NCBI GenBank assembly: GCA_965249555.1
Contig: OZ252243.1
Span: 224,001-288,000 of the forward strand
Length of the DNA: 64,000 nucleotides
Direction of reading: 5' to 3'
DNA from: Nitrosopumilus sp.
Lineage (GTDB): Archaea > Thermoproteota > Nitrososphaeria > Nitrososphaerales > Nitrosopumilaceae
The number at the start of each line of letters is the position of its first letter. The stretch's first letter is position 1. Made by a program: the position numbers and the translations under genes. Positions 4,390-58,114 of the stretch are shown piece by piece. The notes under the pieces were generated by a model. It had not been told where the DNA came from, made no database searches, and saw only the letters and a program-made list of their open reading frames with translations.

Positions 4390-4594
4390 GAAAAATCAAG
4401 AGGCATACCCACAAATAAAGTTAGTCAGATTAGTTTTATCTACTTGAATTTATTCTAGTCACAGTTTCTATATGTTATTTTCAGATGACATTAAAGACAG
4501 TTAGATTTTTTGCAAAAGGCTTTTTTAGATGATATACATTTTCTTCAAGTTGTGTACTTTAATTTTAGGCAATAAAATAAATCCCGATTATCAA

Positions 4595-4893
4595 GTGAAT
4601 CGATCAACAGAACTCGACATTATGATGATGTTTGGTGCTGGTGCATCAAGTCCATCTGGAATTCCAACAATAGATGAAATGACATCAGAATTTTTAGAAG
4701 AATATCAAAAAAAAGAATGCCATCTATTTTGAGTGTATTAAAGAAGATTACTAAATTCCAATTTGAGAAAGTGGGTCTAGATACTATTATGGGTGTGGTC
4801 GTTCAATTTGAAGACAAAAAATATAGAGAACTTTTGGAGAATAAATTTTCCCAACCCCATAATACTCACAAATTTACTTGTAATTGTGAATAA
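4595..4893 (+). pseudogene. Truncated, frameshifted SIR2-family (NADase-like) protein
   Basis: MMFGAGASSPSGIPTIDEM is a SIR2 N-terminal motif. The frame shifts near the A8 run (4707-4714) and continues MPSILSVLKK…GLDTIMG to TAA at 4891. Confidence 0.65.
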
Positions 4894-4988: not shown

Positions 4989-5252
4989 TTACACAGCATT
5001 AGCTGCCATTTCTTGTTCAGCTATTTTCATTGCACGTTCTGTAGCAATACTTGATGACAGTTTTTCTAAATACTTGGATTTTGAAGAATCTGGATTCAGC
5101 TTGAATAACATCGCTTTTCCAACATTTCTATTTTTAAAAATTACATTTTCTGCTGCCAGTTTGTTTACTTCTTTTAGAGTAGTTTTAAAACCTATTCCAG
5201 AATTTCTTGCAATGTCTGAAATTGAATAGTCATAACTTCTAAAAGTTATCAT
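4989..5252 (-). CDS. Winged-helix DNA-binding protein, probably 5'-truncated by the adjacent element
   Basis: YSISDIARNSGIGFKT helix-turn-helix and NVGKAMLFKLN wing; an inverted repeat begins 9 bp upstream of the ATG. Confidence 0.7.
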   Translation of the reverse strand: MITFRSYDYSISDIARNSGIGFKTTLKEVNKLAAENVIFKNRNVGKAMLFKLNPDSSKSKYLEKLSSSIATERAMKIAEQEMAANAV

Positions 5253-5261
5253 AAAATGATA

Positions 5262-5309
5262 ACTGTAACGTTGTCGTTACTTGAAATACGGATCTTCTAA
5301 GGATTGAAA
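5262..5309 (+). repeat. Left inverted repeat ACTGTAACGTTGTCGTTACTTGAAATACGGATCTTCTAAGGATTGAAA
   Basis: Reverse complement of 8593-8640 with one mismatch. Confidence 0.95.
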
Positions 5310-5374
5310 GGGGTAATTATTCGTGTTAACTGTTGAGGGATGAGCTTTTAGATTAGTTAGAATCTTGTAAAATT

Positions 5375-5449
5375 GGACTTGTTGCATAGTTTGGATAGTG
5401 CAGGTGGCTTCGAACCATCAGGTCAGGGGATCGAAGCCCCTCAAGTCCT
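5375..5449 (+). tRNA. tRNA-Arg(UCG), divergent copy inside the transposon
   Basis: Cloverleaf: acceptor GGACTTG/CAAGTCC, D stem GCAT/GTGC, anticodon stem GGTGG/CCATC with loop CTTCGAA, T stem AGGGG/CCCCT with loop ATCGAAG. Confidence 0.88.
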
Positions 5450-6364
5450 TTACCACCATTCACTATCATTATACATATTGTTTGGAACACCAACAAGTCT
5501 AACGTCAAATTTTAATGAAGGCTCAATTTTTGTCCTGGCGTTATGAATCCTAAATGACAATTCCCAACCTTGATCAAATATCATCTCTAGTTTGTTATTG
5601 TTAATTATCCGAGTCCTGATAATTTCAGTAGGAAATCTTAGTTTTTTAACATTGTAATTGGGTTTTATTCTGCCTGATTGTCTGTTCAATGTACCATAGA
5701 AATTATACCCCTGAATCTGCGTGTATTTGTCATACTTCATGATCTTGTAAAAGTCGTTTGTACCTACAAGATATTTGATAAGTTGCATTGGAATACGGGA
5801 ATTTTCCTGTGTAAATCTACAAATTTCTGTTTCAAATGCCTTTAGAACTGGCATGTAATAATCAATATGCTTGTTTTCTAGCTGATTCCATTCCATAAGA
5901 CTATCCAAACCTCTGAGTTTTCCAAAAATTTCTTTAGCACTATTCATGTATGTTTCAGAACATCTTATCCCAAACCATTGTTTGCCAAAGTCTATACTGT
6001 CTGATAGCCTTGAATGTTTTACTGCATTGTTTTTATTTTTGGCAGAAAAACCAATTTGCCATGAATCTGTATTTAATATTACAATATCTCTGACATCACC
6101 AGATATTTTCTTTTGATCTGATTGAATGGTAATTGTCATAGGATTAGTGTCTTTCAAGTGTGGCTCTAGGTTTATGATGTGGCTTATTGCAGCTTGTGAA
6201 GCTGATTTGTATTCCTGTTGCGATGCTTCATCAAATAGATTGAAGCATTTTTGTGCCGTATCATAAGATGAATCTTTTACAAACTTTGCATTCTGTACCT
6301 TCTCATACAATGAATGACCTAAAGCATATTCAAAGGCTTTGCCTGATTGAGTCTGACTAGGCAT
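5450..6364 (-). CDS. HaeIII-family type II restriction endonuclease
   Basis: GKAFEYA, GDVRDI, SAKNKNNAVKHSRLS, DFG..WFG..CS and SFRIHNA…EPSLKFD motifs. Confidence 0.85.
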   Translation of the reverse strand: MPSQTQSGKAFEYALGHSLYEKVQNAKFVKDSSYDTAQKCFNLFDEASQQEYKSASQAAISHIINLEPHLKDTNPMTITIQSDQKKISGDVRDIVILNTDSWQIGFSAKNKNNAVKHSRLSDSIDFGKQWFGIRCSETYMNSAKEIFGKLRGLDSLMEWNQLENKHIDYYMPVLKAFETEICRFTQENSRIPMQLIKYLVGTNDFYKIMKYDKYTQIQGYNFYGTLNRQSGRIKPNYNVKKLRFPTEIIRTRIINNNKLEMIFDQGWELSFRIHNARTKIEPSLKFDVRLVGVPNNMYNDSEWW

Positions 6365-7145
6365 TTTTCTTATCAGCCAAATCGTTACTCAGTATCAGGA
6401 CTTCCCTTGAATTTTTATTGTTTGACATTCCATATTTCCATTTAGGATAATAAAATTCAAAGGCATCATACATCTTGTCAATCTGACTACAGTCATTATA
6501 CGATAAAATCCAGTTGTCTCTATTCTTTAGAATTTTTGCCAATCCCTCATGGTCAAAGCCACAATGCAAATCTCCTTTATTTCCATAAAGTTTCTGATCA
6601 ATCAGGTATGGCGGATCAAGATATAACAGATTGTCTTTTGATTTAGGTATTGATTCCTTAAAATCAGCTTGTTCCACATGTAGGTTTTTTATCTGGAAGT
6701 TTTCAATTCTCTCTATTGATGAAATAGTAAATCGTGGATGGTTGGGAGACATACCACCTGACATTGTAGTACCAGAAAATGATGAGCGATTTAATACATA
6801 AAAAATAGCTGCTCGTTTATATTTTGACTGTGATCTGTGTTGGGATTTTTGAAGTTCATAAAATCTATCCTTGGATAATGGATAATATTCTTTGATGATT
6901 TTTGCAAGTTTGATTCTGTTATTCAAAAGACACTGCCAAAACTCTACAAGTGGTTTGAAATTATCATACCCATAGACAGTGATTCCGTTATTGACACATG
7001 CCAATTCAATAGATCCGCCTCCAAGAAAAGGTGAATAAATTACATCTGTTTCATGTGGAATAAAACTTGATATTTTAATTATCCCTCGTGATTTTCCTCC
7101 CGCATATCTTAGCGGTGAACGTGGCTCTTTTCTCAATACCAACAT
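6357..7145 (-). CDS. Dam-like (D12 class) amino DNA methyltransferase
   Basis: SPLRYAGGKSR, PFLGGGS, LYLDPPY and LSYND motifs; overlaps the REase by 8 bp. Confidence 0.92.
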   Translation of the reverse strand: MLVLRKEPRSPLRYAGGKSRGIIKISSFIPHETDVIYSPFLGGGSIELACVNNGITVYGYDNFKPLVEFWQCLLNNRIKLAKIIKEYYPLSKDRFYELQKSQHRSQSKYKRAAIFYVLNRSSFSGTTMSGGMSPNHPRFTISSIERIENFQIKNLHVEQADFKESIPKSKDNLLYLDPPYLIDQKLYGNKGDLHCGFDHEGLAKILKNRDNWILSYNDCSQIDKMYDAFEFYYPKWKYGMSNNKNSREVLILSNDLADKKNA

Positions 7146-7182
7146 TTTCTGTTACTTCCTTTTACATTTTCTAATCTTACAA

Positions 7183-7356
7183 TCATTCCTTCATTAATTC
7201 CAAAACAATTTTCCCTGTCTTGAGATCCAATGTCCACTTTAGTTTGTCATTAGTCGTAATCTCCAACAGATCTGCAATGTATTTAGGAATTGTACAGCGT
7301 ACAGTTTGATTCTTGTTTGCGATTACAACGTTTGAATATTTTACCAAATTCTTCAT
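7183..7356 (-). CDS. AbrB/SpoVT-like small regulator (57 aa, not in the ORF track)
   Basis: MKNLVKYSNVVIANKNQTVRCTIPKYIADLLEITTNDKLKWTLDLKTGKIVLELMKE*; TIPK.IA..L.I…D.L.W pattern. Confidence 0.75.
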   Translation of the reverse strand: MKNLVKYSNVVIANKNQTVRCTIPKYIADLLEITTNDKLKWTLDLKTGKIVLELMKE

Positions 7357-7436
7357 GCCTATCTTTATGACCTGTTATATTTATGCCTATATCAAAGGGC
7401 ATAACTCATATCGGCATATTAATGCCTATAAGCATG
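7354..7436. promoter_or_regulatory. Divergent promoter region with repeated ATGCCTAT boxes
   Basis: ATGCCTAT at about 7355, 7383 and 7422, plus inverted GGCATA boxes, between the AbrB-like gene and the transposase. Confidence 0.45.
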
Positions 7437-8559
7437 AATCAAATAACTCAAAGAGCCAAACTGATGATGGAAAACCAGACTGTGCAGTACAGTTTAGCCC
7501 TGACAAATTTAGCGTAAGATCACAGAGCATTCCTCAAGTTCATTATATCATATCAAAGACAGACAACGGATTGATCTGTGATTGTCCAGACCACATCAAG
7601 AGAAAATCAGACTGCAAGCACATCAAGATTGTACTGGAGCTAATCAAGAAAAATCAAGGTAACATTCAAGAGTTTAGAATGATGGACAGGTCAATATTCA
7701 ATCTTTGCAAGTTCTGTGATTATGGCAGACTAATCAAAAAAGGAATCAGAAAAAACAAGCAAGGGGATGTCCAGCAATACAGATGTAAAGATTGTAATAA
7801 AATATTTACTTTGAATCTTGGCTTTGAGAAAATGAAATCCAAAGACGTTCTAATCACCAGAGTCTTGCAGATGTACTTTGCAGGAATGTCAGTCAGAGAC
7901 ATTGCAGACTGTTTTGAACAAGAAGACATCAAGGTATCTCATATGACAATCTACAGATGGATTGAAAAATACTCCAAAATAACCAGTAATTATCTCAAGG
8001 GCGTAGTGCCAAGAGTATCTGAAATTTGGAGAACAGATGAAATCTTTATGAAAATCAAATGCGATATGAAACTACAGTATTCCATGCTTGACCATGAGAC
8101 CAGATTTATGATAACTCAATATGTGGCAAATACCAAAGGCACTGAAAATGTCAATCCAATGTTTAGAGAAGCTATGATGATTATAGATAAGATACCAACC
8201 ACACTAATTTCTGATGGAGCTGTAAACTTTCACGAAGCATGGGAAGAAAATTACAAGGCAAAGAATTTTCTTTGGAAAGATACCGAACACATCAGACATA
8301 TTCACATGAAAGGCGACAAGAACAACAACAGAATAGAAAGATTAAACGGTACAATCAGGGATAGAGAAGTTGCATACAGAGGGATAGAGAAGATGAACAG
8401 TCCATTATTTGATGGCTTTCAAACGTTCTATAATTTCTCAAAAAAGCACACAGTAGAATTGGCAAGAAGACTACAGCTGAGATGGCAGGTATTCTAGTAG
8501 ATGGAAATAACAAGTGGAAAACTATCATACAAAACGCCTCACTTAGTCAATACCAATAA
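7434..8559 (+). pseudogene. IS6-family-like DDE transposase (SWIM, Zn ribbon, HTH, DDE) with two frameshifts
   Basis: CDCPD..CKH, QYRCKDC, SVRDIA, WRTDE, ISDG and NNRIERLNG. The likely start MNQITQRAKLMME (7434) is out of frame at the A4 run near 7471. The C-terminus GKKTTAEMAGI…WKTIIQNA is out of frame after CACACA near 8447. Confidence 0.85.
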
Positions 8560-8592
8560 TCATCATTTTAGGAATTTTAGAACTTGTAAATT

Positions 8593-8640
8593 TTTCAATC
8601 CTTAGAAGATCCGTATTTCAGGTAACGACAACGTTACAGT
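8593..8640 (-). repeat. Right inverted repeat
   Basis: Pairs with 5262-5309; extends to GGTACTGT on the minus strand (8643), resembling IS6-type ends. Confidence 0.95.
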
Positions 8641-8690
8641 ACCCAGAGATCAATCCAATTAAATATCACAAAAGGTTTTACAGTTCATCT

Positions 8691-10708: not shown

Positions 10709-11242
10709 TCAAGAATATTTTAACGAATCCAATTTTGACAACAAAACTATTTCGTTCTCATCGTCATCCTTGTGGATTAGTAAAATACTCATCGTTCCAT
10801 CGGTAAAGTCACTTTTTCTATCGTATATGCTTTTTCTATCGTATATGCTTTTTCTATCGTATATGCTTTTTCTATCGTATATGCTTTTTCTATCGTATAT
10901 GCTTTTTCTATCGTATATGCTTTTTCTATCGTATATGCTTTTTCTATCGTATATGCTTTTTCTATCGTATATGCTTTTTCTATCGTATATGCTTTTTCTA
11001 TCGTATATGCTTTTTCTATCGTATATGCTTTTTCCGCCAACAAAAATCATTTGATAATCATTTGCTTTGCAGTATTCATTGAAATCATGAACTTTTTCTG
11101 GTTGGACATGGTATGGAAAAAAGACCATTGATTTTGAAGTTGAAGGAATTCTGAACAGGTGATCTACATTGAATCGCACTTTATTCTGAGACAAATCAAG
11201 AAATTCATTATTCAATCCAATTTTGTATGATATATCAATCAT
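10709..11242 (-). CDS. Hypothetical protein containing (KSIYDR)12
   Basis: Frame stays open across the repeat; ATG at 11242 avoids overlap with queE. Confidence 0.55.
   Translation of the reverse strand: MIDISYKIGLNNEFLDLSQNKVRFNVDHLFRIPSTSKSMVFFPYHVQPEKVHDFNEYCKANDYQMIFVGGKSIYDRKSIYDRKSIYDRKSIYDRKSIYDRKSIYDRKSIYDRKSIYDRKSIYDRKSIYDRKSIYDRKSIYDRKSDFTDGTMSILLIHKDDDENEIVLLSKLDSLKYS
10812..11034. repeat. Perfect 18-bp tandem repeat CTTTTTCTATCGTATATG x12 plus a partial copy
   Basis: Identical units with no spacers. Confidence 0.97.
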
Positions 11243-16253: not shown

Positions 16254-16774
16254 TTAATTCGGTGGATTTTCTTTGTAAAATTTTACAGCCTCTGCTATTT
16301 GTCTAAATTCTAAGTCATCTTTGGTGAATGGCTTTAATTTTTTTCAATCAATATCTTCATAGCAAAACATCGCAATTAGGCTCAAATCTTCAAGATCTGG
16401 GTCTCTATTTGCCCTGAATTTTGTAACAATTAATACTTCCAAGCAAATTACATTAACAGTAGTGCCTTTTTTGTCTACTGAGATTGTTGCTCTTGTTTCA
16501 ATAATTGTCTCTAGCGGAATGTCATTTAATTCTCGTGAATCATGAACATCAATCTTATAGTTTCTAGGTGTGTATGTAACTTTTCCGTTTTTGACTATGA
16601 ATCTGTATTCTAAACTCAGAAATTCATCACGAGTTATTTGTTTGGCAACAACAAAATTCAGATCTTGTATTCTCTACTTTTTTTAGTATGTAAAAATACA
16701 GCTACTGCTCCAACAAAAGTTGCATCTCCCAAATCTTGTGTAATTAGAACCGCTTCTTCAATGTACGGATTCAA
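16254..16774 (-). pseudogene. AbiEii/MenT-like nucleotidyltransferase toxin, inactivated
   Basis: Manual translation: FVGAVAVFLH..SRE, frameshift, QDLNFVV…LEVLIVTKFRANRDPDLEDL…ID*KKLK; one frameshift and one internal TGA. Confidence 0.65.
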
Positions 16775-17438
16775 GTGACAAATCTTCCTGAACTTTTAGT
16801 AACATATCTATGGTAAATCTAGCTTTGATAGTAATTTTATCCCTATGTTTTAGTTGAATTGCAATTGCATCCATCATGCTTCTTCCTCCTTTTGCAACAC
16901 AATCTAGAAAAACTCTTTCTGTTAGATTTTCAAATGAACCTATCTTTGGAAGAATTATAATACTTCCTTTTGTTCCTTCTCTAAAATTATTTTCTTTTAA
17001 AAATTGAACTGTTTTTTCAACATCATCAACATACACATAAAGATCATGGGCAGATTGAAATTTTGTCATTTTATGTGCTGAATAATCTAATGTTATCATA
17101 GACTTTTTTGGTAAATTCTTCATCATAAAATCAATGTCAGATTGTCTATAGTACTTTCCAAATCTTCTTGCTTGCATAAATGCAGCAAATGATGGAATTA
17201 GTTTTTCTAGAATAATGAGTGGTTGTGCTATAACTTCTCTTTTAATAGTAAATTGTCCTCGATTATATTTTGCTAGTCCTATCTCTGTTAATTTTTTTAC
17301 TCTTCTACGAACGGTTCTTTCATGAACACATTTTGCAACCTCTTTTACTTTATAGATCGGTCTAGGTGGAAGCCCCTGAGCAAATTGTAACGCGTCTTTG
17401 TATCGTGTTAAAATTGATGCCATTTCTTGTTGTGTCAT
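16758..17438 (-). CDS. AbiEi-like antitoxin / wHTH regulator
   Basis: N-terminal HTH (VKEVAK..HERTVRRRVKKL) and C-terminal ERVFLDCV; overlaps the toxin remnant; ATG at 17438 preferred. Confidence 0.6.
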   Translation of the reverse strand: MTQQEMASILTRYKDALQFAQGLPPRPIYKVKEVAKCVHERTVRRRVKKLTEIGLAKYNRGQFTIKREVIAQPLIILEKLIPSFAAFMQARRFGKYYRQSDIDFMMKNLPKKSMITLDYSAHKMTKFQSAHDLYVYVDDVEKTVQFLKENNFREGTKGSIIILPKIGSFENLTERVFLDCVAKGGRSMMDAIAIQLKHRDKITIKARFTIDMLLKVQEDLSLESVH

Positions 17439-17512
17439 ATAGCATATACTGTATGCAATATACTTATAGTTTGGACAAATATATCCATTTGTATATATAT
17501 GACCTTCAATTA

Positions 17513-17707
17513 TTATGCCCATATTTTCTCAGAATGATATTTTGCAGTTAGTGTTTGATGAGTTTGTTTTCCATATTTTCTCTCCAATCTATCTTTCTCA
17601 AGATCTATCTCTTCGTCTTTTCTATTCATGTTTAAGATATCAACAATTCCATCATCAATTCGTTTTTTTGCCCATTGTCTTAGGGTAATATTCAGTACTG
17701 TCTGCAA
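17513..17707 (-). CDS. Small hypothetical protein
   Basis: 64 aa ORF. Confidence 0.35.
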   Translation of the reverse strand: MQTVLNITLRQWAKKRIDDGIVDILNMNRKDEEIDLEKDRLERKYGKQTHQTLTAKYHSEKIWA

Positions 17708-17812
17708 GTAATGCTACAGATTCTTTTGTAGGATTGTTAATAATTCTCTCATACCAATGACAGAAATAGCAAAGATGCATGGAGATATTAATTATGATTT
17801 ATAAGGAGAAAA

Positions 17813-18163
17813 ATGAGAATTGGAAATAAGGAGAAAGATATGAGTGTATTAGCTAATCAGGATATGTATAAGGAAGAAATAAAATTCGTCAAAAAATATG
17901 ATGAATTAGCAATGTGTACTCTAGATCAATTAAGTAAACAAAACCAACTAAAATTCAAAGAATTGCATAAAATTGTAGATACTTGTCTCGATGAAAAAAT
18001 AACGAAAAAAAGTTTCGAACAATGTGTTAGAGGAATGCTTTTGAAAGGATTGGTAATAGAAACATTTTCAAAAGATCAACAATTCAAAATCGAGTTATCT
18101 TCAATTGGTAAAGTAGTGCATAAAACAATTAAAAAAGACAGCAAACACTTAGCTACAATATAG
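17813..18163 (+). CDS. Winged-helix-like hypothetical protein
   Basis: LKFKELHK…LLKGLV…ELSSIGK pattern. Confidence 0.55.
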   Translation: MRIGNKEKDMSVLANQDMYKEEIKFVKKYDELAMCTLDQLSKQNQLKFKELHKIVDTCLDEKITKKSFEQCVRGMLLKGLVIETFSKDQQFKIELSSIGKVVHKTIKKDSKHLATI

Positions 18164-18165
18164 TC

Positions 18166-18780
18166 CTAAAACAAACCAAGGTTTTTGGCCCTTCTTTTTG
18201 TCCATGTGTGAATCATTTCAACTATTTCATTATAATTTGAATAAGAGTACTGCATCTTTATACCATCAACAAAAAGACCTGATGTGATGCAAGATGAAAG
18301 AATTTTTTTCTTGTTAGCATGTTTATCAATTAGAAAACCTAACTCTTCTTCAAGTCTTTTTTTACCAGATTTATTCAATCCAAATAAACCACAAATAAAT
18401 CCGATCTCAAATGTTAAACCAAGTAAATAGCCTTCTTTAGTAGATATCACAATACAAAGAAGTCTTTGCATTTTTAATAAATCTGTAAATTTATCAACAT
18501 GTGTGATTTGTTGTGCTTTCGCTTTTTCTTCTTCCATTACATATGTATTAATGCCCAATTTTTTTAGATCGTTTTTGATACGAATTCTTCTATTTAATTC
18601 AGTTTTTGGAAAACTAGGTTCAAGAATTAATACATTAATTTTTTAATTGCTTTTTTGACTTTCATCATTGTTTTTAGCATGTTTTTTCTTTGGTTTTGAT
18701 TTCTTAGGTTGTTTTGTTTTTCTAGCTGAAGATTTTCTTCTAGTATGTCTCTTTTTATATCTTGTAACTTGTCTAGATCT
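18166..18780 (-). pseudogene. NDT/TIR-like Rossmannoid protein with an in-frame stop
   Basis: The frame of the 130 aa ORF extends upstream (KINVLILEPSFPK…) to TAA at 18643-18645 and is open beyond it; GLTFEIGF motif. Confidence 0.4.
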
Positions 18781-18794
18781 GAAAGGATTGTATT

Positions 18795-21700
18795 ATGAGC
18801 ATCACATTAAATGAACAACAAGCAAAGGCTGTAAACCATAAGGACAGTGCTCTCTTAGTAATTGCAGGACCAGGTAGTGGGAAAACTAGAGTAATAGTAG
18901 AAAGAGTTGAGTTTCTTACAAAAAATGGAATTCCTTCAGAGAATATCCTCTGTCTTACTTTTACGCACAAAGCTACAGGTGAGATGAAAGATAGATTAGA
19001 AAAAAAAGGAATTGTGGATGCAACTGTTTCTACATATCATTCATTTTGTAGAGATCTATGTGCAGAAAATGCAGAAGTTACGGGTTTAGGAAAAGGAACG
19101 AAGATAATTCCAAAATCAAGTATGTTAGTATGGTGTATGAAAAATACTGATTCATTTAATTTTGATCCAAATGTTATAGATTTTTCAGCAGATCATATTT
19201 CAGTTTACACTGCGATGCATGAAGGGATTTCTAATTTTAAAGAAGAGATGGTAACACCTGATGATTTAGAAAAGTGGCTTGATGCAGAACAAAAGAGTTT
19301 AGATGAATTATCTGATGGAGAAAAAACAAATAGAACAAATCGTAGAAGACAAGAATATGTCTTAAAACATCGTGAATTCAATAAAGTATATAGAAGATAT
19401 GTAGAATATGAAAAAGAAAAAATGTTAGTTGATTATGATGACATGATAAACAAAGCAATCACTCTATTGAAAACAAATAAGACAGTTTTAGAGGATTGTC
19501 ATGAAAAATACAAATACATTCTAGTTGATGAATTTCAAGATAATAATTTTGCACAATATGAATTACTGAAACTTCTCTCAAAGGATGGAAATGTTACTAC
19601 TGTGGGAGATGATGATCAATTAATTTACAGTTTTCAAGGTGCAGATTCAAACAACTTTACAAGTTTTGAAGAACATTTCAAGCCTGTAGAAAAAGTTTTT
19701 CTTGAAGAAAATTATCGTAGTACAAAATGCATTGTTGATACTGCAAAACTACTTCTTCCAAAAAGTACTAGTAAGAAATTATACTCTAATTTAGAGCAAG
19801 GCGAGCCGGTTCATATAGTTAGACCAAATGATGATAAGGCAGAACTTGGGTTTGTTCTGAGAACTATACAAAATTTGGTTGGAACAAAATTCACTCATAG
19901 AGAGAGAGGTGAAACTACAATACAGTACAAAGATTTTGCAATTTTATCAAGAAAAAAAGAAACAGGTGACAAGTTTGCACAAATTCTAAAGTCATACAAT
20001 ATTCCATCAACATATGTTGGAAATTACAATATTTTTTCTAGTCCTTTCATTCATGAACTAATAGACTATCTCAAAGCTACTAGTTCTCCTAGTACAAACG
20101 GCCAAATTTTATACAAAATTATGGTGATGAGAGGAATTGAAGATATTAACATTCAACTAATTTTAAAAGAAGCATACAAAATTGCAAGAAACATTACTCC
20201 TGGGAAATCAGATTATGTTTATGAAAAAATGAAAGGATGTAATTCATTTGAGATAAAACAAAAACCTGAAGTCATGGAAATTATAGAATTAATTGAAAAA
20301 CTCCGAGAAGAAATGTCAAAGACTAGTTTGATAGAGTTTTTACGTAAAGTAACTTATGAAATGACAGGAATATTTCAGAGATGTCTAAAGATGGAGACAT
20401 TAGAAAGTAGACGAAGTGTTGCAATTCTTAATGCATTTTATGAATCTGCTGTGGAGTTTTCTGATCTAAATCCTGATGCAGACATTAAGGAATTTCTAGA
20501 GCACATTAGTTTTCTTAACAAATTTGAATTAGATTTTGAAGAGGCAACTACAGATGATGATAGTGTACAAATAATGACTATGCACAAAAGTAAAGGAAAA
20601 GAATTTCCAATTGTATTTATCCCAGAAATTGTTGATAGACGATTCCCACATGATTATAGAAATAGGAAATATTTTCCTCCAGATGGTTTGATTAAAGGTA
20701 TAGACAAGGAAAGGCATTCTAAAGAAAAACACATCCAGGAAGAAAAAAGACTACTTTATGTGGCTATGAGTCGTGCCCAGAATCGGCTTTATGTGCTTGC
20801 ACCTATGAGTTATGGAGATGTTGATAAGAAAGTTTCAATGTTTTTGACACAGATTGGATATGACAAAAATCCTGAAATTATGAAGTCTTATGATTACAGA
20901 GGAGAAGGAACACTTCAGGATACATCAACTGGATTCATAGAACGAATTACAAAAGAGAAACAAAAAGCTGCATCTATTGCAATAGATCAAATGTCAATTA
21001 CTACTGCAGCACATAAACTAATTGAGCTTGCACGAATAAAATATTTTGAAGAACATAAAAAAGATGATCCTGAATGTAAAAACTTTGATGCAATAAAAGT
21101 CTTTGATATTGATTTATCTCAAGTTTCACTAGAAGAAGATCTTGGTGGCAAAATTGTACCAATGTTTAATGAAAATAATCTTACACTATCTGCATCAAGT
21201 CTTAATACATACCTGACATGTCCATATCAATTCCAATTAAATAGAATGCGTGTTCCTGGGCCAAATAAGATCTATTTTGATTTGGGTAAATCAGTTCATG
21301 GAGCTATACAAAAAATATCTGAAGATAAGATTAAAGGTAAAGCACCAACTGTTAATGAAGCTGAAAAAATTCTTGATAACAAATGGATTTTTAGAACATT
21401 TGAAAGTGGTCAACAAGAATCTACTGTGAAAGATATTGCAAAGGAAATGATTGAGAAATATGTAGAGATGGAGAAAGAAAATAAGAATGAAATTGTTGGA
21501 GTAGAAAAAGAATTTACAATAAAAAGAAAAAATGTTACTATTAATGGCACAATAGATAGAATAGAGAAAAATGATGAAGGGGAATTTGAATTATTTGACT
21601 ATAAGACTGGAAAGACTATGATGAAACCTGTAGAATTGGTTTCAGATGTACAACTAAATCTTTATGCTGCAGCTATGAAGGAGATTTCCAAATATGGGAA

Positions 21701-21902
21701 ACTTCCTGTAAAGGCCACTTTGGTGTACCTTAGAAAAGAACCTGTTTCTACTGCTATTTCAGAGATGAATGTTAATTTGGTTATGAATATTGTAGATGAG
21801 TCCATAGATGATATTTTAGAAGGGAAATTTGAGGCTACTCCATCCAATAACGCCTGTAGAAACTGTCCGTACAAGAATATGTGTGAGTTTGCAGAATGGT
21901 GA
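18795..21902 (+). CDS. UvrD/REP helicase fused to a PD-(D/E)XK nuclease with four Cys (AddA/AdnAB-like)
   Basis: AGPGSGKT, DEFQD, TMHKSKGKEF and EEKRLLYVAMSRA; nuclease motifs CPYQF, GTIDRI, DYKTG, QLNLY and CRNCPYKNMC. Confidence 0.93.
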   Translation: MSITLNEQQAKAVNHKDSALLVIAGPGSGKTRVIVERVEFLTKNGIPSENILCLTFTHKATGEMKDRLEKKGIVDATVSTYHSFCRDLCAENAEVTGLGKGTKIIPKSSMLVWCMKNTDSFNFDPNVIDFSADHISVYTAMHEGISNFKEEMVTPDDLEKWLDAEQKSLDELSDGEKTNRTNRRRQEYVLKHREFNKVYRRYVEYEKEKMLVDYDDMINKAITLLKTNKTVLEDCHEKYKYILVDEFQDNNFAQYELLKLLSKDGNVTTVGDDDQLIYSFQGADSNNFTSFEEHFKPVEKVFLEENYRSTKCIVDTAKLLLPKSTSKKLYSNLEQGEPVHIVRPNDDKAELGFVLRTIQNLVGTKFTHRERGETTIQYKDFAILSRKKETGDKFAQILKSYNIPSTYVGNYNIFSSPFIHELIDYLKATSSPSTNGQILYKIMVMRGIEDINIQLILKEAYKIARNITPGKSDYVYEKMKGCNSFEIKQKPEVMEIIELIEKLREEMSKTSLIEFLRKVTYEMTGIFQRCLKMETLESRRSVAILNAFYESAVEFSDLNPDADIKEFLEHISFLNKFELDFEEATTDDDSVQIMTMHKSKGKEFPIVFIPEIVDRRFPHDYRNRKYFPPDGLIKGIDKERHSKEKHIQEEKRLLYVAMSRAQNRLYVLAPMSYGDVDKKVSMFLTQIGYDKNPEIMKSYDYRGEGTLQDTSTGFIERITKEKQKAASIAIDQMSITTAAHKLIELARIKYFEEHKKDDPECKNFDAIKVFDIDLSQVSLEEDLGGKIVPMFNENNLTLSASSLNTYLTCPYQFQLNRMRVPGPNKIYFDLGKSVHGAIQKISEDKIKGKAPTVNEAEKILDNKWIFRTFESGQQESTVKDIAKEMIEKYVEMEKENKNEIVGVEKEFTIKRKNVTINGTIDRIEKNDEGEFELFDYKTGKTMMKPVELVSDVQLNLYAAAMKEISKYGKLPVKATLVYLRKEPVSTAISEMNVNLVMNIVDESIDDILEGKFEATPSNNACRNCPYKNMCEFAEW

Positions 21903-22224
21903 GAGATTCATTTAGTTCTAACGTTGGAACAAAAAACTTGGCATTCTATAGTGAGGATAAGATGGAAAAGAAAACTGGAACAATGGGAATAACGATCGTA
22001 TGTATCAAGCACTTTAGATGTATTCTATCATTTCAGAAAACATGTTCAATCCCCTAGTTGTATGATGATTTTTTCATGACCACAATCTGACATGTTTTAT
22101 ATGATGATTTAGTTGATCTTAGATCTTTTTGTGTAATGGTATTGATTTGTGCGTAAAGGTTGATACATACTAACGATCAAACTTAATACTGTGAAATTCA
22201 AACTAAATACCTCTAGGTGTAATC

Positions 22225-23625
22225 ATGAGTACTGAAGAAATTAATGAAAATGAAATACATGAAGATTCAAATAGAAAAAAATATTTTGAAGAGCTTTGGG
22301 AGAAAACTTCAACTGTACAAGTTACAGTAGATAATGAAACAGGACCAAAATATTTTGAAGTATTCTATAAATCAAATACCGAAATGGATCGTTTACCTGT
22401 AAAAGAAATTCCTATCGATATAGATAAAAACACAGGTCTTTGGTATAATCCTTTCAATTCAAGAATTTTAGCTTACAAACTAAGAAAAGAATCTGAATTA
22501 GAAAAAAGTGGAGATGACAGAAAATTATCTGCACAAATTAAAGAAGATAGAGAGTACATACAACAAGTATTACTTGAAAGTGCATTTTATTCAGGTAAAG
22601 CGACAGAAGATCTTGAAAAAGAATTAGAAGAGACAGGACAAATAGATCCTGCAATTATCTCTGCAGACGGAATAATTTGGAATGCAAATCGTAGAGTTGC
22701 CATTAGACAAAAATTATTTAAACAAACAGGAGATCCAAAGTGGAATACAGTAGAAGCTGTCAGATTACCAAGTCTGTCATTCAAACAGCTAAAGCAACTT
22801 GAACATCGTCTTCAAATGGCTAAAGAATTTAGAGAAGAATATGGTTCTGTGAATTTACGATTAAGATGTAGGCAAGCGACCAATCCCCCTGAAAATTGGA
22901 CGATGGCAGAATTACGAAATTCATTTCATTACAAATACTCTAAAGCGGATATAAAGAAATTCATTGAAGAGATTGATTTAATCGACGAATTTTTAGAATT
23001 TGCAAAAGCACCTTCAGATTATCCATTAATTGAACAAAAAGCCAAAGGCAGGGGGGTTGAAATTTTTACTGCATTAAATGATCAGATAAAATGGGAAACA
23101 GAACACTATACAAAGGAGGAAGATGAAGCAAATAGAGAGAACATAAAATATATAGGTTTTTCAATAATTCACAATAAAAACACAACTTACAAAGATGTTA
23201 GAAATTTTAGAAATATTTTACGAAAAGAGGTTACAAGAAAAGCTTTCTTAGAAAATTCCGTGATTTATAAAAACCCTACAGAATACATTATCACAACAGA
23301 TGACTCTGCACCTCTTGCATTAAAACCTGAAACAACTCAAGAAGAATATAATAATTTAGAGAAAGAGATGGCAGTTTACGAATCTCTGGAAAATACACCT
23401 ACTGAAGTTACTACAGAAGTACTGAAAAAATTATTGAGCATTGTTATGGATCGAATTGATTCTAAAGATGAAGAATTTAAAAAGAGTGCATTAGGTGTTG
23501 TTGAACGTATAGACACATTGATTTCTAAATGTGACTTTACGGAACAAGAGGCTAATAATTTTACTGTTATAATAAAAAATCTTGCAACAAAATTTGGTTA
23601 TGAATTAAAATCAAAATCATTATGA
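22225..23625 (+). CDS. ParB/Srx-like N-terminal domain protein
   Basis: GQIDPAIISADGIIWNANRRVA resembles the ParB GQ..P..I…G….GNRR motif. Confidence 0.7.
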   Translation: MSTEEINENEIHEDSNRKKYFEELWEKTSTVQVTVDNETGPKYFEVFYKSNTEMDRLPVKEIPIDIDKNTGLWYNPFNSRILAYKLRKESELEKSGDDRKLSAQIKEDREYIQQVLLESAFYSGKATEDLEKELEETGQIDPAIISADGIIWNANRRVAIRQKLFKQTGDPKWNTVEAVRLPSLSFKQLKQLEHRLQMAKEFREEYGSVNLRLRCRQATNPPENWTMAELRNSFHYKYSKADIKKFIEEIDLIDEFLEFAKAPSDYPLIEQKAKGRGVEIFTALNDQIKWETEHYTKEEDEANRENIKYIGFSIIHNKNTTYKDVRNFRNILRKEVTRKAFLENSVIYKNPTEYIITTDDSAPLALKPETTQEEYNNLEKEMAVYESLENTPTEVTTEVLKKLLSIVMDRIDSKDEEFKKSALGVVERIDTLISKCDFTEQEANNFTVIIKNLATKFGYELKSKSL

Positions 23626-25577
23626 TAAATATTTCTAAAAAAGAAGAGAGCCTAGAAATATCATCAAACTCAAATAACATTTTAGCACCAATTATAAAAA
23701 ATTGGTTGGTCAAAAATGGATTTTTAATAAATTCAGAGAAAAAATGTGTATTTTTTTCAGGAAAGATCAATGAACAATTTTTAAATAAAATTTATAAATT
23801 TCTCAATACATATGAAAAAGAAATTATTTTAGATTCATATTGTAAATCAGCACTAGAAAAAATTGAAAATGAAAGAAAAGATTACGCATCTTTAGTACAA
23901 CAAGCATTAAAAATTAAAAAATCAGTAAAAGAGATTAATTCATTTAAAGTTCCCAGAATGAAGGAGGGGTTAGAACTTAAATGGTATCAAAGAATGCCTG
24001 TATTACACGCAGTAACTTTAGAAAACTCTGCTAATTTCTCAGTTCCCGGATCAGGAAAAACATGGATGGCCTATTCAACTTTTTTTATGTTGAAAGAAAA
24101 AAATATTGTAAATAAACTTCTAGTTATTGCACCATTAGCAGCGTTTAAGCCATGGGAAATTGAATATAAAGAAATTACTGGTAACCGAGGTCATATAGAG
24201 AGACTAACTGGAACTCCACAAGAGAGAGATTTGAAGTTTAGAATGGTTAGTGGATATGAAATTTTTCTTGTAAATTATGCAATTGCAGGAATTGAAAATT
24301 TTATGTTACAACGTCTTTTACAAAATGATGATTTTTTAGTTGTTATTGATGAGTCTCACCATGTTAAGAACATTAATACAGATAGAACACAAAAGGTATT
24401 AGAATTAAGTAAATTTGCAAAACGAAGAATGATTTTAACTGGAACAATGATGCCAAAAGAATTGTTCGATATTTGGTCACAGTTTCAGTTCTTGTATCGA
24501 GAACATAATAGAGAATTGTTAGGAACTGCACCTTCTTTTGAAACAAGATCAAAAGAATTGGGGGCTATCCGTAAATATTCTGAAATACTCTCACCCTATT
24601 TTACACGAGTTTCAAAAAACATGCTTGGATTGCCAGAACCAGTTTTTAATCCAACCAATAAGGGGGATCCACATATTGTAAAAATGGGAGAAATTCAAAG
24701 AAGGATTTACAATGCTATTCGGGGTAGAATTAGAGGTGAAGTTTCTGATTTTAAAAATGATTCTTTCGCCTTAAGAGATTATGTTAAAAAGGCTATTATC
24801 TATTTAATAGAAATTTCCACAGATCCTTCATTGATAACGCATAACACTCAATTTGATACAGCAGAGTTAGAAACACTTCACATGGATGCATTAGATATGT
24901 TGGAGAAATATCCTAGATTGAAAGATGAACCTCATAGTAAATATAAAAAAGCAGTGAGTTTAGCACAAGATACTCTCAAAAACGGTGGTAAAGTCATTAT
25001 CTGGACAAATTTTATTACTTCAGTAAAAAAACTCAAAAAATATTTTAATGACGAAGGATACAATTGTGTTCTTATCTATGGAGCAATTCCAAAAGATGGA
25101 GAAGAAAATGCTAATTTTAATAGAGAATTAGAAATAGAGAAATTCAAGACAAACCCTGATTACAATGTTTTAATTGCAATTCCTGCATCATTAGCAGAAT
25201 CTGTTTCGTTACACAAAGAGTGTCATCATGCGATATATGTTGATAGAACTTACAATGGTGGTCATTATATTCAAAGTTTAGAACGAATTCATCGTGTAGG
25301 ACTAGATGAAAATGTAGAAACGCGATACGACATTATAGAAAGTGAAGATTCTATTGATCAAGAGATCGAGTTTAGCTTAAGATTGAAAAAAAGAAACATG
25401 GATGAATTTTTCAATAGTTCTGATTTAATAATACAGGATTTAGATTTAGAAGAAAGTTCAGATGAGGAAGAAAATTCAAGTGCTTATTCAAATCCAGTGG
25501 GAAATAAAAATGAATTTGAAAATGATCTAAGATCTATTTTAGATTACATTAACAAAAAAACATCTAATGATGAATAA
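23622..25577 (+). CDS. SNF2-family helicase/ATPase
   Basis: GSGKT, DESHH, LTGT, KVIIW, ESVSL and QSLERIHRVG; ATGA overlap with the upstream gene. Confidence 0.9.
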   Translation: MINISKKEESLEISSNSNNILAPIIKNWLVKNGFLINSEKKCVFFSGKINEQFLNKIYKFLNTYEKEIILDSYCKSALEKIENERKDYASLVQQALKIKKSVKEINSFKVPRMKEGLELKWYQRMPVLHAVTLENSANFSVPGSGKTWMAYSTFFMLKEKNIVNKLLVIAPLAAFKPWEIEYKEITGNRGHIERLTGTPQERDLKFRMVSGYEIFLVNYAIAGIENFMLQRLLQNDDFLVVIDESHHVKNINTDRTQKVLELSKFAKRRMILTGTMMPKELFDIWSQFQFLYREHNRELLGTAPSFETRSKELGAIRKYSEILSPYFTRVSKNMLGLPEPVFNPTNKGDPHIVKMGEIQRRIYNAIRGRIRGEVSDFKNDSFALRDYVKKAIIYLIEISTDPSLITHNTQFDTAELETLHMDALDMLEKYPRLKDEPHSKYKKAVSLAQDTLKNGGKVIIWTNFITSVKKLKKYFNDEGYNCVLIYGAIPKDGEENANFNRELEIEKFKTNPDYNVLIAIPASLAESVSLHKECHHAIYVDRTYNGGHYIQSLERIHRVGLDENVETRYDIIESEDSIDQEIEFSLRLKKRNMDEFFNSSDLIIQDLDLEESSDEEENSSAYSNPVGNKNEFENDLRSILDYINKKTSNDE

Positions 25578-26563
25578 TGGTAAATATTTTTGAAATTAAC
25601 AGATTGATATCTTGTCTTTACATACTGAAGAAAGATAATAATTTGGCTAAAAGAGATTATGTATTACAAAGATATTCAGATGAGTTTTTTATTGAACAAA
25701 ATTCTTTATTAGAAGATGTACTTGAAATTTCATTAAAACTTGAATTTATTCAAACATCCGATGAGTTCTTAAAACTTACTTCCATAGGGGAAGATTACAT
25801 AAAATTATCAAAAAATACATCAAATCCTTCAAAAAAACAGTTAATCTTTCTCGAAGATTTACTTACCAAATCATCATTTTTTTATAACGAGTTTAAAAAC
25901 CATTTTTCAAATTTTCGTGTTGATTACTCTGAGGAAATTCCAACTTATCGAACGATTAGAAGAAAATCTAAGGAACAAACAAACTCATTTGAAATATTTA
26001 AAAATATGAATATTTTTGATAGTGATGAAGATGGTTTTTTTATTCCAATTGAAAAAAATCACCTTGTTTCATTTCTAAAAAATAAAGAACATCTGAAAAA
26101 AACAAATTTTGAAGATATCAATAAAAAGAAAACTGAAATTGGAGAAATAGGTGAAAAACTTACATTAGATTATGAGTCAGAGCGATTAAAAAATTCTGAA
26201 GAGCATGTTCAAAGAATTACACAGATTAGTAAATTTGATGATGCCGCAGGTTTTGATATTAATTCATTTGAAGATATTACATCAAACAAATGGGATAGAA
26301 TGATTGAAGTAAAAGCAACAACCGATTCATATCCTCATTTTTATCTTAGCATGAATGAAATAGAAATTTCATCGTATTTGGAATCACAATATTGGATTTA
26401 TTTGTGGACAGATGTACTAAAAGAAAAACCAAAATTAATAAAAATTCAAGATCCTTTTAAAGAAATATTTCTAGAAAGTAAAATTAAACCAGAACCAACT
26501 TCATATTTTATTAATAAACATTTGATTCAAAGTCTCAATCAAGTTAAATCTACTAAGGTGTGA
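25577..26563 (+). CDS. DUF3883 (NOV-C)-type nuclease-domain protein
   Basis: GEIGE…E..RL, DDAAGFDI.SF, IEVKAT and F.LS.NE motifs. Confidence 0.82.
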   Translation: MVNIFEINRLISCLYILKKDNNLAKRDYVLQRYSDEFFIEQNSLLEDVLEISLKLEFIQTSDEFLKLTSIGEDYIKLSKNTSNPSKKQLIFLEDLLTKSSFFYNEFKNHFSNFRVDYSEEIPTYRTIRRKSKEQTNSFEIFKNMNIFDSDEDGFFIPIEKNHLVSFLKNKEHLKKTNFEDINKKKTEIGEIGEKLTLDYESERLKNSEEHVQRITQISKFDDAAGFDINSFEDITSNKWDRMIEVKATTDSYPHFYLSMNEIEISSYLESQYWIYLWTDVLKEKPKLIKIQDPFKEIFLESKIKPEPTSYFINKHLIQSLNQVKSTKV

Positions 26564-26570
26564 TATATTT

Positions 26571-27464
26571 ATGAAATTTTCTGGTACTGGTACATCATCT
26601 TTCAAAAAATTTAAGGAATATTATAAGAGTATGAGAAAAAAAGAACAGAAAGAAATTGGAATTAAATCTAGAAATTTGGCAGAAGAACTTATCAAAGAAT
26701 ATTTTAATTCAACAAAACCAAAAGAAAGTGAAAAAATTAAGAAACGATTAGAAAGGAAAAGGGTCTTTTCTTCTTGGGAACAACAAGTATTTGAAAAATT
26801 AAAAGAGAATAGGATAGAATTTAATAAAAAATTTAGAAAATTTCCAATTAAAATCAATGATAATCTTACTATAAATTATGAACCCGATTCTCTTTTAGAA
26901 AAATATGAGTTCGATGGAAAAGAAATTATCATTGAAGCACATGAAGAATTGACAAATGATGATATAGTAAAATATTCTACATTTATGAAAAACTATTTTT
27001 CCGTTTTTCATTTGATAATGATTGTAAATGAACATGAATTAAGGAAATGGAATGGTTTTGATTCATCAAATAGATTATTTAATGACATTTGGACCATAAA
27101 CGATCTAAAAGATCTAATCAATTGGATAAAAAGACAGAATATAAAAGAAGAAGATTTTGTTACACAAACAAAATGTCCCCACTGTACAACAACTGCAGTT
27201 GGTTCTAAACAAATTAACAGTTTTTTTGGATTCAGAAAGAAAAAAAATGGAGAGTCATTTCCTCAAGCTTTATGTAGAGAATGTAGAAGACTTCAATTAA
27301 AATTAGGAACAGATGGTTTGAAAGATTTTCTTGAACAATCTAGAAGAGAATTAGTTATAGAAGTTCAACGATTTTGTACTGGATGTGATAATTATTTTGA
27401 AACAAAAATTCCCGATGAGGCATTTTGTGTTGAATGTAATAAAAAATATTGGAATAAGGTATGA
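26571..27464 (+). CDS. PD-(D/E)XK-like nuclease with two C-terminal Zn ribbons
   Basis: SSWE…YEPD…IIIEAH; CPHC/CREC and CTGC/CVEC. Confidence 0.65.
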   Translation: MKFSGTGTSSFKKFKEYYKSMRKKEQKEIGIKSRNLAEELIKEYFNSTKPKESEKIKKRLERKRVFSSWEQQVFEKLKENRIEFNKKFRKFPIKINDNLTINYEPDSLLEKYEFDGKEIIIEAHEELTNDDIVKYSTFMKNYFSVFHLIMIVNEHELRKWNGFDSSNRLFNDIWTINDLKDLINWIKRQNIKEEDFVTQTKCPHCTTTAVGSKQINSFFGFRKKKNGESFPQALCRECRRLQLKLGTDGLKDFLEQSRRELVIEVQRFCTGCDNYFETKIPDEAFCVECNKKYWNKV

Positions 27465-27528
27465 TAAATCAAATTAAGAACTAATCAATGTTTGAAGATG
27501 ATTATAATGAATTAATTACAAAATATTT

Positions 27529-28096
27529 ATGAATACCAAATCTCCATTACGCTATCCTGGAGGAAAATCAAGAGTAGTAAAAACACTCTACAATTACATC
27601 TCTACAATTACATCTCTACAATTACATCCCTTCAGGCACAAAATCACTATGTTCACTATTCTTTGGAGGTGGATCTCTTGAGATTTACTGTGCACAGATG
27701 GGAATAAGGGTTTACGGATATGACTACTTTGAACCTCTTGTAGATTTTTGGCAGTGGTTACTAAAAGATCCAGCAAAATTAGCTGATGATGTAGCAAAAT
27801 ACAAACCTGTAAATTTTAGTGAACCTGAATTTAAGAAATTAAAGAAGAAGCATCCAAAGACTAAGAGTTCTTTTAAGAAAGCGGTTGAATTTTATGTTTT
27901 GAATAGAACATCACACTCTGGTAATCCAACCGCAGTTGGAATGGCAAAAAAATACACTAGACGAGAAAATGGAACAGTGAATGTAGATAAAAATCTAAAA
28001 CCAATCATCAAGAAAAAAGTTAATCAAGTAAATAATGAGAAACATAAAAATAAATTTAAAACAAGAAAAGATGCTTATCACTTCGAAAAACAATAA
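27529..28096 (+). pseudogene. Dam-like methyltransferase, frameshifted and lacking DPPY
   Basis: MNTKSPLRYPGGKSR, then FFGGGSLE…YGYDYFEPLVDFWQ…FYVLNRTSHSG in another frame; paralogue of 6357-7145. Confidence 0.85.
27586..27627 (+). repeat. 14-bp tandem repeat CTCTACAATTACAT x3
   Basis: Three identical units; a single unit restores the MTase frame. Confidence 0.95.
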
Positions 28097-28106
28097 TGGT
28101 AAAAAC

Positions 28107-28325
28107 TTAAACTTTTTTGTATGTAGAGTCACCGATTCGGTTTATCTCACCTTTCTTTTTCATATAATAGATGATACTGCGAATTTGATGTTTACTCACA
28201 GTAATTCCCAAGTTACTATCGCTCTCTTTTTGTGTTATACTATACAATTCATCTAAAGTTCTTGTTTCTTGTGAGAGAAAAGCACTTTTAACTAAATCAG
28301 CAACTTTTCTATCTTTCATTTTCAC
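28107..28325 (-). CDS. Small winged-helix protein (paralogue 1)
   Basis: TLDELY…KHQIRS.IY…INRIG.STY. Confidence 0.7.
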   Translation of the reverse strand: MKMKDRKVADLVKSAFLSQETRTLDELYSITQKESDSNLGITVSKHQIRSIIYYMKKKGEINRIGDSTYKKV

Positions 28326-28353
28326 TCGTTAATTTTTTCAAATAATAGATATA

Positions 28354-28566
28354 TTATTCAACCTTTTGATAAGTTGCAGTAGCAGAACGTTTTACCTTGT
28401 TGAATTGTTGAAGATTATAAAGTGCACTTCTAACTCTGTGTTTTCTAACAGGAAGATCCCATGTGAACTCTGAATTCTCCCCTATAATTTTATACAGTTC
28501 ATTTAAAGTAAGTTCATCTTTTGTTGATAATGCATCTAAAATTACATTATTTAATTTTGAGACCAT
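28354..28566 (-). CDS. Small winged-helix protein (paralogue 2)
   Basis: TLNELY…KHRVRSALY…VKRSA.ATY. Confidence 0.7.
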   Translation of the reverse strand: MVSKLNNVILDALSTKDELTLNELYKIIGENSEFTWDLPVRKHRVRSALYNLQQFNKVKRSATATYQKVE

Positions 28567-28596
28567 GATAAAATTCAGTATTTCTACATATTAAAA

Positions 28597-28864: not shown

Positions 28865-28939
28865 AGGGCTCGGAGGGCTTCGATCCCTCGACCTAGCGGT
28901 TCGAAGCCGCTCGCACTATCCAGACTGTGCAACGAGTCC
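28865..28939 (-). tRNA. tRNA-Arg(UCG)
   Basis: GGACTCG..GCAC/GTGC..AGCGG CTTCGAA CCGCT..GAGGG ATCGAAG CCCTC CGAGCCC; A3:C70 mismatch; followed by a T-run. Confidence 0.93.
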
Positions 28940-58006: not shown

Positions 58007-58051
58007 AATTAGTTATGATGAGAATGGAACTAAAAGAAATTAATTTAAAAT

Positions 58052-58103
58052 TATAATTTTAGAAAAAAGGTAGGGTGTTTTGATTGAGATTGTTATGATT
58101 GTA
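58052..58103 (+). repeat. Intergenic hairpin repeat copy A, left half (right half at about 59431-59450)
   Basis: Aligns with copies at 61283 and 63179; split by the IS110 element. Confidence 0.85.
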
Positions 58104-58114
58104 TCCATGTGAAT

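Follow-up and report, generated by a model that had tools for sequence, protein, structure and literature searches.

A probable decayed IS6-like transporter transposon with restriction-modification cargo and a passenger tRNA-Arg gene in Nitrosopumilus

A 2021 review of the IS6 family of insertion sequences (IS) names a single member with a passenger gene, ISDsp3 (PMC7986276), which was elsewhere classed as a phylogenetic "solo" and a 1456-bp outlier (PMC6807381). As described, this Dehalococcoides transporter IS (tIS) holds one hypothetical passenger and a single IS6-type transposase of 319 aa, without an intact zinc finger, within long inverted repeats (IRs; 28/36 positions), with an 8-bp target site duplication (TSD). 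For archaea, a 2019 survey of Thaumarchaeota (Krupovic et al., PMC6563490) treated ISs as units of one or two genes and, in its account of them, stated that passenger-carrying transposons were undetected; the thaumarchaeal IS6 entries in its supplementary file 4, listed by gene coordinates, mostly have ISDsp3 as best match (47-63%), and several are 1137 bp long, as is the N. viennensis homologue P0111. Restriction-modification (R-M) genes within terminal IRs and an 8-bp duplication were reported by Furuta et al. in 2010 as sporadic bacterial cases with no intact transposase, no archaeal case having passed the selection described there (PMC2853133). Here we analyzed a 64,000-nt stretch of a Nitrosopumilus sp. 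genome (GCA_965249555.1, contig OZ252243.1, positions 224,001 to 288,000; hereafter the window), in which IRs enclose a tRNA-Arg gene, an R-M pair, an AbrB-like gene, and one IS6-like transposase gene. We conclude that this unit is probably a decayed IS6-like transporter transposon from a family widespread in Nitrososphaerota, with exchangeable R-M cargo and the tRNA as a bystander.

Upon alignment, the IR arms (5262-5309 and 8593-8640) were complementary at 47 of 48 positions, and everything that an earlier note, made from the letters of this DNA alone, had listed between them was found there. The outer limits it gave, 5262 and 8640, needed correction: the right end reaches 8643, where it bears the family tip GG..CTGT and scores 24.4 bits against the family IR profile, and the left end, whose altered tip probably reflects one inserted base, has 5258 as its most likely start. 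Similarity to the left end of a TSD-flanked relative (L006; related loci are cited by such numbers) covers 5263-5329 (84% over 67 nt, blastn) and so runs 20 bp beyond the IR. Only one locus in the window matched the transposase by tblastn, an IR-profile scan found no further IR-like site between the ends, and just 65 bp separate the left IR from the tRNA gene. We therefore rejected a composite or pseudo-compound transposon, in which two IS copies flank the cargo, and agree with the earlier note that this is one transposase with its passengers inside one IR pair, i.e., a tIS, as are the 51 relatives described below.

At the insertion site, the left end cuts into a winged helix-turn-helix (wHTH) gene: a 139-aa homologue aligns at 95% from residue 53 onward only, and the first 52 residues occur nowhere in the window. 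Shifting the end positions yielded no target duplication longer than 3 bp, and the 8 bp adjoining 5258 and 8643 differ, so the lack of a TSD first noted at the uncorrected ends holds at the corrected ones. A broken SIR2-like gene with weak PADLOC matches (4529-4893) adjoins the truncated wHTH gene, which suggests that this was already a variable patch. None of the element's open reading frames (ORFs) encodes an integrase, as an integrase-type tRNA-integrating element would, and no att-type duplication of either tRNA-Arg gene was found in the window, where the longest tRNA k-mer occurring elsewhere is 11-12 nt and does not come from the 3' end.

Evidence that such units move came from their relatives. 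A scan of genome contigs with a transposase alignment returned 132 relatives; the 80 best of these entered the analysis. IR pairs were delimited at 52 loci, 44 by self-comparison and end search and 8, a few of them with dissimilar ends, picked manually out of the IR-profile scan; L044, whose pair holds no transposase, was left out, giving 51 elements, while 28 loci (short contigs, fragments, single ends) stayed undelimited. Thus, at 51 of the 80 loci an IR pair surrounds one IS6-like transposase gene plus passengers, and since the spans run from 2158 to 11443 bp with a transposase of ~1.1 kb, all 51 carry passengers. The shared layout is left IR, exchangeable cargo, a small AbrB-like gene divergent from the transposase gene, and right IR; a small divergent ORF lies upstream of the transposase in 40/51. 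A perfect 8-bp TSD, the IS6 length, flanks 34 of the 51. Furthermore, whole-element copies occupy two sites of one genome in four cases, at 100% identity in L005/L006, L035/L036, and L047/L049 and at 99.96% in L073/L075, which shows that cargo moves with the single transposase. The earlier note had named the same IRs around different cargo as support for a cargo-transposon family; among these relatives, related IRs enclose cargo that varies, and there are 8-bp TSDs and identical copies at separate sites as well.

R-M genes are the commonest cargo, present in 19/51 elements (11 of these 19 with a perfect TSD) and in 16 of the 31 from Nitrosopumilaceae, counting L049 through its identity to L047. 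Pfam scans covered 206 of 312 called ORFs, excluding transposases, duplicates, the window's own, and very short ORFs; the kinds found were N6/N4 methylases with HNH, EndoVII, or Mrr nucleases, MmeI, MunI with MT-A70, HsdM/S, EcoRI-type, HinP1I, and HaeIII. By a crude motif count, amino-methylase ORFs number 8 in 118 kb inside the elements versus 3 in 437 kb outside. The alignments indicate that cargo modules pass between backbones. For instance, MunI with MT-A70 rides on two backbones whose transposase DNA is 66% identical while the cargo is 81% identical. Similarly, the IRs and transposase of the window element match L004/L005 at 82-84%, and its AbrB-promoter segment matches L032/L067 of another clade; with IRs and transposase from one clade and AbrB-promoter segment and R-M pair like those of another, this copy is a mosaic.

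The transposase itself is IS6-like, with 41.8 bits to Pfam DDE_Tnp_IS240 (cut-off 27) and a helix-turn-helix (HTH) combined with a DDE domain in which D184, D243, E284, and R291 are invariant across 27 transposase sequences, a K/R after the E being an IS6 trait. It shares 91% identity with an intact homologue of 374 aa, and comparison with intact homologues confirmed the two frameshifts of the earlier note, one base lost in an A run near 7471 and two gained near 8445. At near-invariant columns it departs five times, whereas 24 of 26 homologues do so 0-4 times; real decay is therefore likelier than sequencing error alone. The 57-aa AbrB-like product is 79-82% identical to small ORFs adjoining the transposase in L032 and L067, to which the whole segment 7178-7443 is 77-80% identical; its Pfam match to MazE is weak (E 0.044), and its Atlas score to MazE/AbrB clusters is 0.93. 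The gene is putatively the first of an AbrB-M-R operon. A sigma-70 promoter scan (15 sites vs 15.3 expected) was uninformative for an archaeon and was discarded. The features of the element and the comparison loci are listed in the table.

Table. Coordinates of the element, its flank, and the comparison genes in the window
Feature	Positions	Strand	Basis or remark
wHTH gene, truncated flank	4989..5257	-	Left end interrupts it at codon 52; 5' third absent
Left terminal inverted repeat (most likely start)	5258..5309	+	47/48 vs right end over 5262-5309; tip altered
Element-internal left-end sequence	5310..5329	+	Homologous to left end of TSD-flanked L006 (also L005)
tRNA upstream region, putative promoter	5343..5374	+	Homologous to native tRNA-Arg upstreams
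Passenger tRNA-Arg(UCG), intact cloverleaf	5375..5449	+	Rfam 51.6 bits; 60/75 identical to native gene
HaeIII-family type II restriction endonuclease (REase), 304 aa, intact ORF	5450..6364	-	Pfam RE_HaeIII, PADLOC REase_II, homologue alignment
Alpha-class amino-methyltransferase (MTase), M.CbeI-like, 262 aa	6357..7145	-	Overlaps REase start; DPPY motif
AbrB/MazE-like small regulator, 57 aa	7183..7356	-	Core gene of element family
Putative divergent promoter region, short inverted operator-like repeats	7357..7433	.	Common to L032/L067
IS6-like DDE transposase pseudogene	7434..8559	+	SWIM-like + Zn-ribbon N-terminus, HTH, DDE; two frameshifts
Right terminal inverted repeat	8593..8643	-	Intact tip
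Broken M.CbeI-like MTase, comparison	27538..27961	+	Converges on native tRNA 3' end
Native housekeeping tRNA-Arg(UCG), comparison	28865..28939	-	Identical to L006 gene

Placed beside the described systems, the family shares with ISDsp3, which we compared by description only, the single IS6-type transposase, the passenger within IRs, the long IR, and the 8-bp TSD. It differs in size (2.2-11.4 kb), in its ~370-aa transposases, in the AbrB-like core gene, and in its R-M, defense, and tRNA cargo. With IS6/IS26 it has in common the DDE transposase, the 8-bp TSD, and the GG tip with CTGT motif, and all annotated plasmid matches are IS6. The IR profile has G1 in 52/53, G2 in 48/53, C5 in 51/53, T6 in 53/53, and G7 in 52/53 sequences; the IS6 GG tip and cTGT motif are thus seen in the family profile and in the right end here, with the inner caaa motif replaced. 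In contrast to IS6/IS26 pseudo-compound transposons, each element keeps its passengers within a single IR pair instead of between a pair of IS copies; identity to bacterial IS6 proteins is only 23-28%, and the transposase scores, detailed below, fall under the NCBIfam cut-off. The cases of Furuta et al. resemble it in holding R-M genes within terminal IRs; here we see an autonomous family with cassette exchange. The tRNA-targeting elements of Krupovic et al., from the same phylum, also place R-M genes beside a tRNA, but they are described as having a tyrosine integrase and duplicating part of the tRNA as a direct repeat, whereas the tRNA of the window element is complete, diverged, and enclosed by transposon ends.

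The R-M pair combines a nuclease with a strong Pfam RE_HaeIII match (E 1.4e-90), for which solved structures gave no match at E 0.001, and a methyltransferase matching MethyltransfD12 (E 1.1e-25). Since all three plasmid matches of the nuclease (3/3) adjoin C5 methylases, a D12-type partner first seemed mismatched, and we considered a non-cognate pairing of a HaeIII nuclease with an adenine methylase. This was dropped after the MTase proved M.CbeI-like. Its best solved relative, 7M6B (E 2.1e-32, vs 1.5e-6 to 1e-4 for DpnM/Dam), is M.CbeI (PMC8616854), a DmtB-type alpha-class enzyme of Caldicellulosiruptor bescii, which is annotated as a D12 adenine methylase yet makes N4-methylcytosine (m4C) in GGCC beside a HaeIII isoschizomer (PMC3425538). 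The window pair likewise joins a HaeIII-family nuclease to a D12/Dam-annotated DPPY methyltransferase. Because M.CbeI is ahead of every other solved structure by 26 orders of magnitude, GGCC cleavage with m4C protection is the likely specificity; unlike CbeI/M.CbeI, the window pair is archaeal and transposon-borne, and its specificity is predicted from homology. The same HaeIII-like nuclease and M.CbeI-like MTase are paired on Nostoc plasmids (n = 3). Within the family, the pair, together with an AbrB-like gene, is cargo of L026, where there is no tRNA and the cargo ends 62 bp from the left IR. In a transposase tree of 49 rows, broken short sequences left out, the L026 transposase lies across a 100/100 split from that of the window. 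The recurrence of the pair without a tRNA on so distant a backbone marks it as ordinary family cargo. The cargo MTase is 63% identical to that of L026. At L053 (8030-9674), a HinP1I-type nuclease is paired with a D12-type methylase; the latter is nearer DpnM than M.CbeI, and the m4C reading was not extended to it.

The second passenger is the tRNA. A native tRNA-Arg(UCG) gene, missed in the earlier note, lies 23 kb away, and its identity to the gene of another Nitrosopumilus genome (L006) marks it as the housekeeping copy. The passenger differs from it at 15 of 75 positions, all by transitions, and nevertheless keeps 21/21 stem pairs, five of them compensated by double changes; none of 200000 random sets of 15 transitions kept pairing and compensation alike. 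With its intact cloverleaf, compensated stems, and UCG anticodon, it has the features of a functional tRNA-Arg, and A20 and C35, which we take to be Arg identity elements, are present. Its 32-nt upstream region has 18/32 and 17/32 ungapped identities to two native upstreams versus 4-16/32 for 22 others, a modest margin. The passenger is either a homologue with conserved structure that stems from another lineage or a copy that has long been mobile, and it is probably a bystander kept under selection. The native gene (28865-28939, and L006:5301-5375) has an A-C mismatch at acceptor pair 3, which is paired in the passenger, and an A-starting T loop. A viral origin was rejected, there being no match among phage records, as was a minus-strand ARAGORN tRNA at 5392-5465, which mirrors the real gene and is absent from the Rfam results.

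Three of the 51 relatives hold tRNA-like genes. That of L009 (9818-9906, +), in an element without a TSD, lies between the element promoter and the transposase start and has a long variable arm, a G discriminator, and an Ile-type GAU anticodon; that of L025 (6082-6265, -), in an element with nested IRs, two methylase-HNH copies, and a TSD, has an 8-nt anticodon loop and is preceded by a stable double hairpin (z -3.4). Both were independently confirmed by Rfam. In L052 (11053-11137, -), a MunI element flanked by a TSD, a decayed Leu-like tRNA overlaps the 3' end of the transposase; it was matched by a model trained on L009 and L025, not at the Rfam threshold. Outside the elements, L010 (13331-13415, +) has a long-arm tRNA with a G discriminator and an Ile-type UAU anticodon 8 bp from an IS6-like end; this gene and that of L009 could be missense tRNAs or decayed Leu/Ser genes. 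Family members also lie 37, 39, and 87 bp from tRNA genes.

Taken together, we propose that the transposase acts on both IRs and would move the whole unit with an 8-bp duplication, as the TSDs and identical copies of relatives show, by a replicative copy-in chemistry expected from the IS6 family. Since cargo tends to follow the AbrB-like gene, with the methyltransferase leading, the element's divergent promoter probably expresses it, and a CbeI/M.CbeI-type cargo would defend the host and stabilize the element. The tRNA-Arg and its promoter were most likely acquired from a donor of Nitrosopumilus type, as a bystander: an R-M-carrying member could have resided just downstream of a tRNA-Arg gene, its inner left end would have been deleted, and an upstream left end would have closed the unit. 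After capture, the tRNA would have diverged with its fold held under selection. At the present site, the left end would have cut the wHTH gene, and a later adjacent deletion or inversion may have removed the duplication; a loss of flanking repeats through intramolecular transposition is described for IS6 (PMC7986276). Decay of the transposase and left tip would then have stranded an intact R-M pair and a spare tRNA.

Several observations weigh against this account. The tRNA-R-M junction is shared by no other of the 80 loci, so that the capture route above is a reconstruction. The left tip is non-canonical, scoring 8 bits at 5259 versus at least 14 for profile-building sites. For this copy we found no TSD, second copy, or empty site, its host genome, with a contig of 2.23 Mb, not being among the scan hits; the mobility claimed in the earlier note is shown for the relatives and not for this unit. 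NCBIfam IS6 model NF033587 is the best model for the transposase, yet it gives 84.7 bits with a cut-off of 125; intact relatives (6/6) also fall short, at 91-117 bits. GGCC is depleted in the window (0.66) and in five groups of related loci (0.70-0.86); being not specific to this genome, this avoidance was rejected as proof of R-M activity. The placement of family ends near tRNA genes may only reflect intergenic insertion. Lastly, the L026 nuclease lacks a conserved C-terminal Trp region that the window nuclease keeps in the homologue alignment, and a broken MTase of the cargo kind, 43-47% identical, lies on the 3' side of the native tRNA-Arg; these two observations make an older tRNA-R-M linkage possible.

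Such a linkage would fit an alternative that we consider unlikely, namely that tRNA and R-M pair were one chromosomal tRNA-anchored donor locus, captured together, and that L026 lost its tRNA later. It would account for the zero-base junction, in which the REase stop TAA (5450-5452) directly follows the last tRNA base (5449), just as the earlier note had observed; for L026-type nucleases ending before the conserved terminal Trp; and for the MTase remnant converging on the native tRNA within a defense-rich stretch. In addition, tRNA-Arg(TCG) is recorded as an integration target in one thaumarchaeon (PMC6563490). Against it, R-M genes are routine cargo, and of the other 18 elements with them only L025 and L052 hold a tRNA-like gene; the cargo MTase is nearer that of L026 than the remnant; the genes around the native tRNA-Arg of L006 look ordinary and do not match the R-M pair; and neither an integrase nor an att-like repeat is seen here. 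The foreign origin proposed in the earlier note is supported for the tRNA and its promoter, which are foreign relative to the housekeeping copy, and capture of the R-M genes as part of a chromosomal tRNA-anchored locus is not supported. Around the native gene, the broken methylase has a 15-bp tandem repeat at its break, and the stretch on the 3' side (16758-28824) holds a UvrD-nuclease fusion, an SNF2 helicase, a PD-T4-1-like protein, and three small ORFs, with no integrase seen in it.

Just as doubtful is a broader scheme of an integron-like defense transposon family, in which an AbrB/transposase core would express exchanged R-M cassettes and tRNAs would be selected, seeding att sites or tuning translation; its instances would be the intact foreign tRNA-Arg of the window and the long-arm tRNAs with Ile anticodons in or near other members. 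It is improbable, too, that the unit never moved whole, the left IR being the rest of a second element copy whose insertion into the wHTH gene was followed by a deletion reaching a resident foreign tRNA-R-M-transposase block. The missing TSD, the altered left tip, and the lost 5' part of the wHTH gene agree with that history, and these loci often show IS-mediated deletions and nested ends. On the other hand, the ends are nearly identical and the layout is that of TSD-flanked relatives, no second left end lies between tRNA and transposase, and the tRNA, not being this genome's own, had to arrive on something; moreover, 17/51 relatives, including the identical copies L047/L049, also lack a perfect TSD. 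Least likely of all is a tRNA selected as a working part (portable att site, extra decoding, anticodon-nuclease decoy, or antisense damping of the converging nuclease gene): its compensated, fully paired cloverleaf and upstream region persist despite a native copy, it abuts the REase gene convergently, and three other members have tRNA-like genes, that of L009 placed just behind the divergent promoter, but those three are different species, aberrant or decayed, tRNAs are no denser inside Nitrosopumilaceae elements (3 in 138 kb) than in their flanks (21 in 501 kb), cargo genes use CGA/CGG for only 4/47 Arg codons (host genes 27/205), which led us to reject a codon-supply role, the compensation may predate capture, and nothing has integrated at the passenger; the hotspot role suggested in the earlier note stays hypothetical. 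We therefore retain the decayed transporter transposon with a bystander tRNA as the probable explanation.

Other features of the family and the window were recorded. Extra left-type IR sites of other subfamilies occur 45-220 bp inside the outer left end in L005, L006, L007, L025, L030, L040, L043, L047, and L053, which suggests that elements grow by accretion of ends. The transposase-free IR pair of L044 (4094-6775) surrounds four ORFs, adjoins an IS6-like gene, and is a possible non-autonomous derivative. Other cargo (L016, L018, L040, L073/L075) comprises a Panacea antitoxin with a partner ORF, a CAP12-type TIR protein, and large Ig/HYR surface proteins, the last in 10-kb TSD-flanked elements. 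Elsewhere in the window are an 18-bp perfect tandem array inside an ORF (10770-11054), a 15-bp array in an aldolase tail (51805-52000), and duplicated repeat-rich surface proteins (56219-63167) separated by two other transposase genes (58308-59423 and 59724-61052).

In mainly open-access literature, with ISfinder/TnCentral and bioRxiv supplements outside its scope, our search found neither this element family nor a tRNA passenger in an IS described, and this archaeal IS6 transporter family is apparently undescribed. Where the 2019 survey stated no passenger-carrying archaeal transposons and the 2021 review one IS6 member with a passenger, dozens of Nitrososphaerota IS6-like elements carry cargo, most commonly R-M genes (at least seven kinds), and have fresh target duplications. 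The tRNA passenger is a single well-preserved case and may be incidental; as complete foreign cargo, it cautions against reading tRNA-adjacent defense genes as integrase islands by default. The family offers a testable archaeal transposon with room for cargo and gives ammonia-oxidizing archaea a concrete vehicle by which restriction systems and methylomes turn over.

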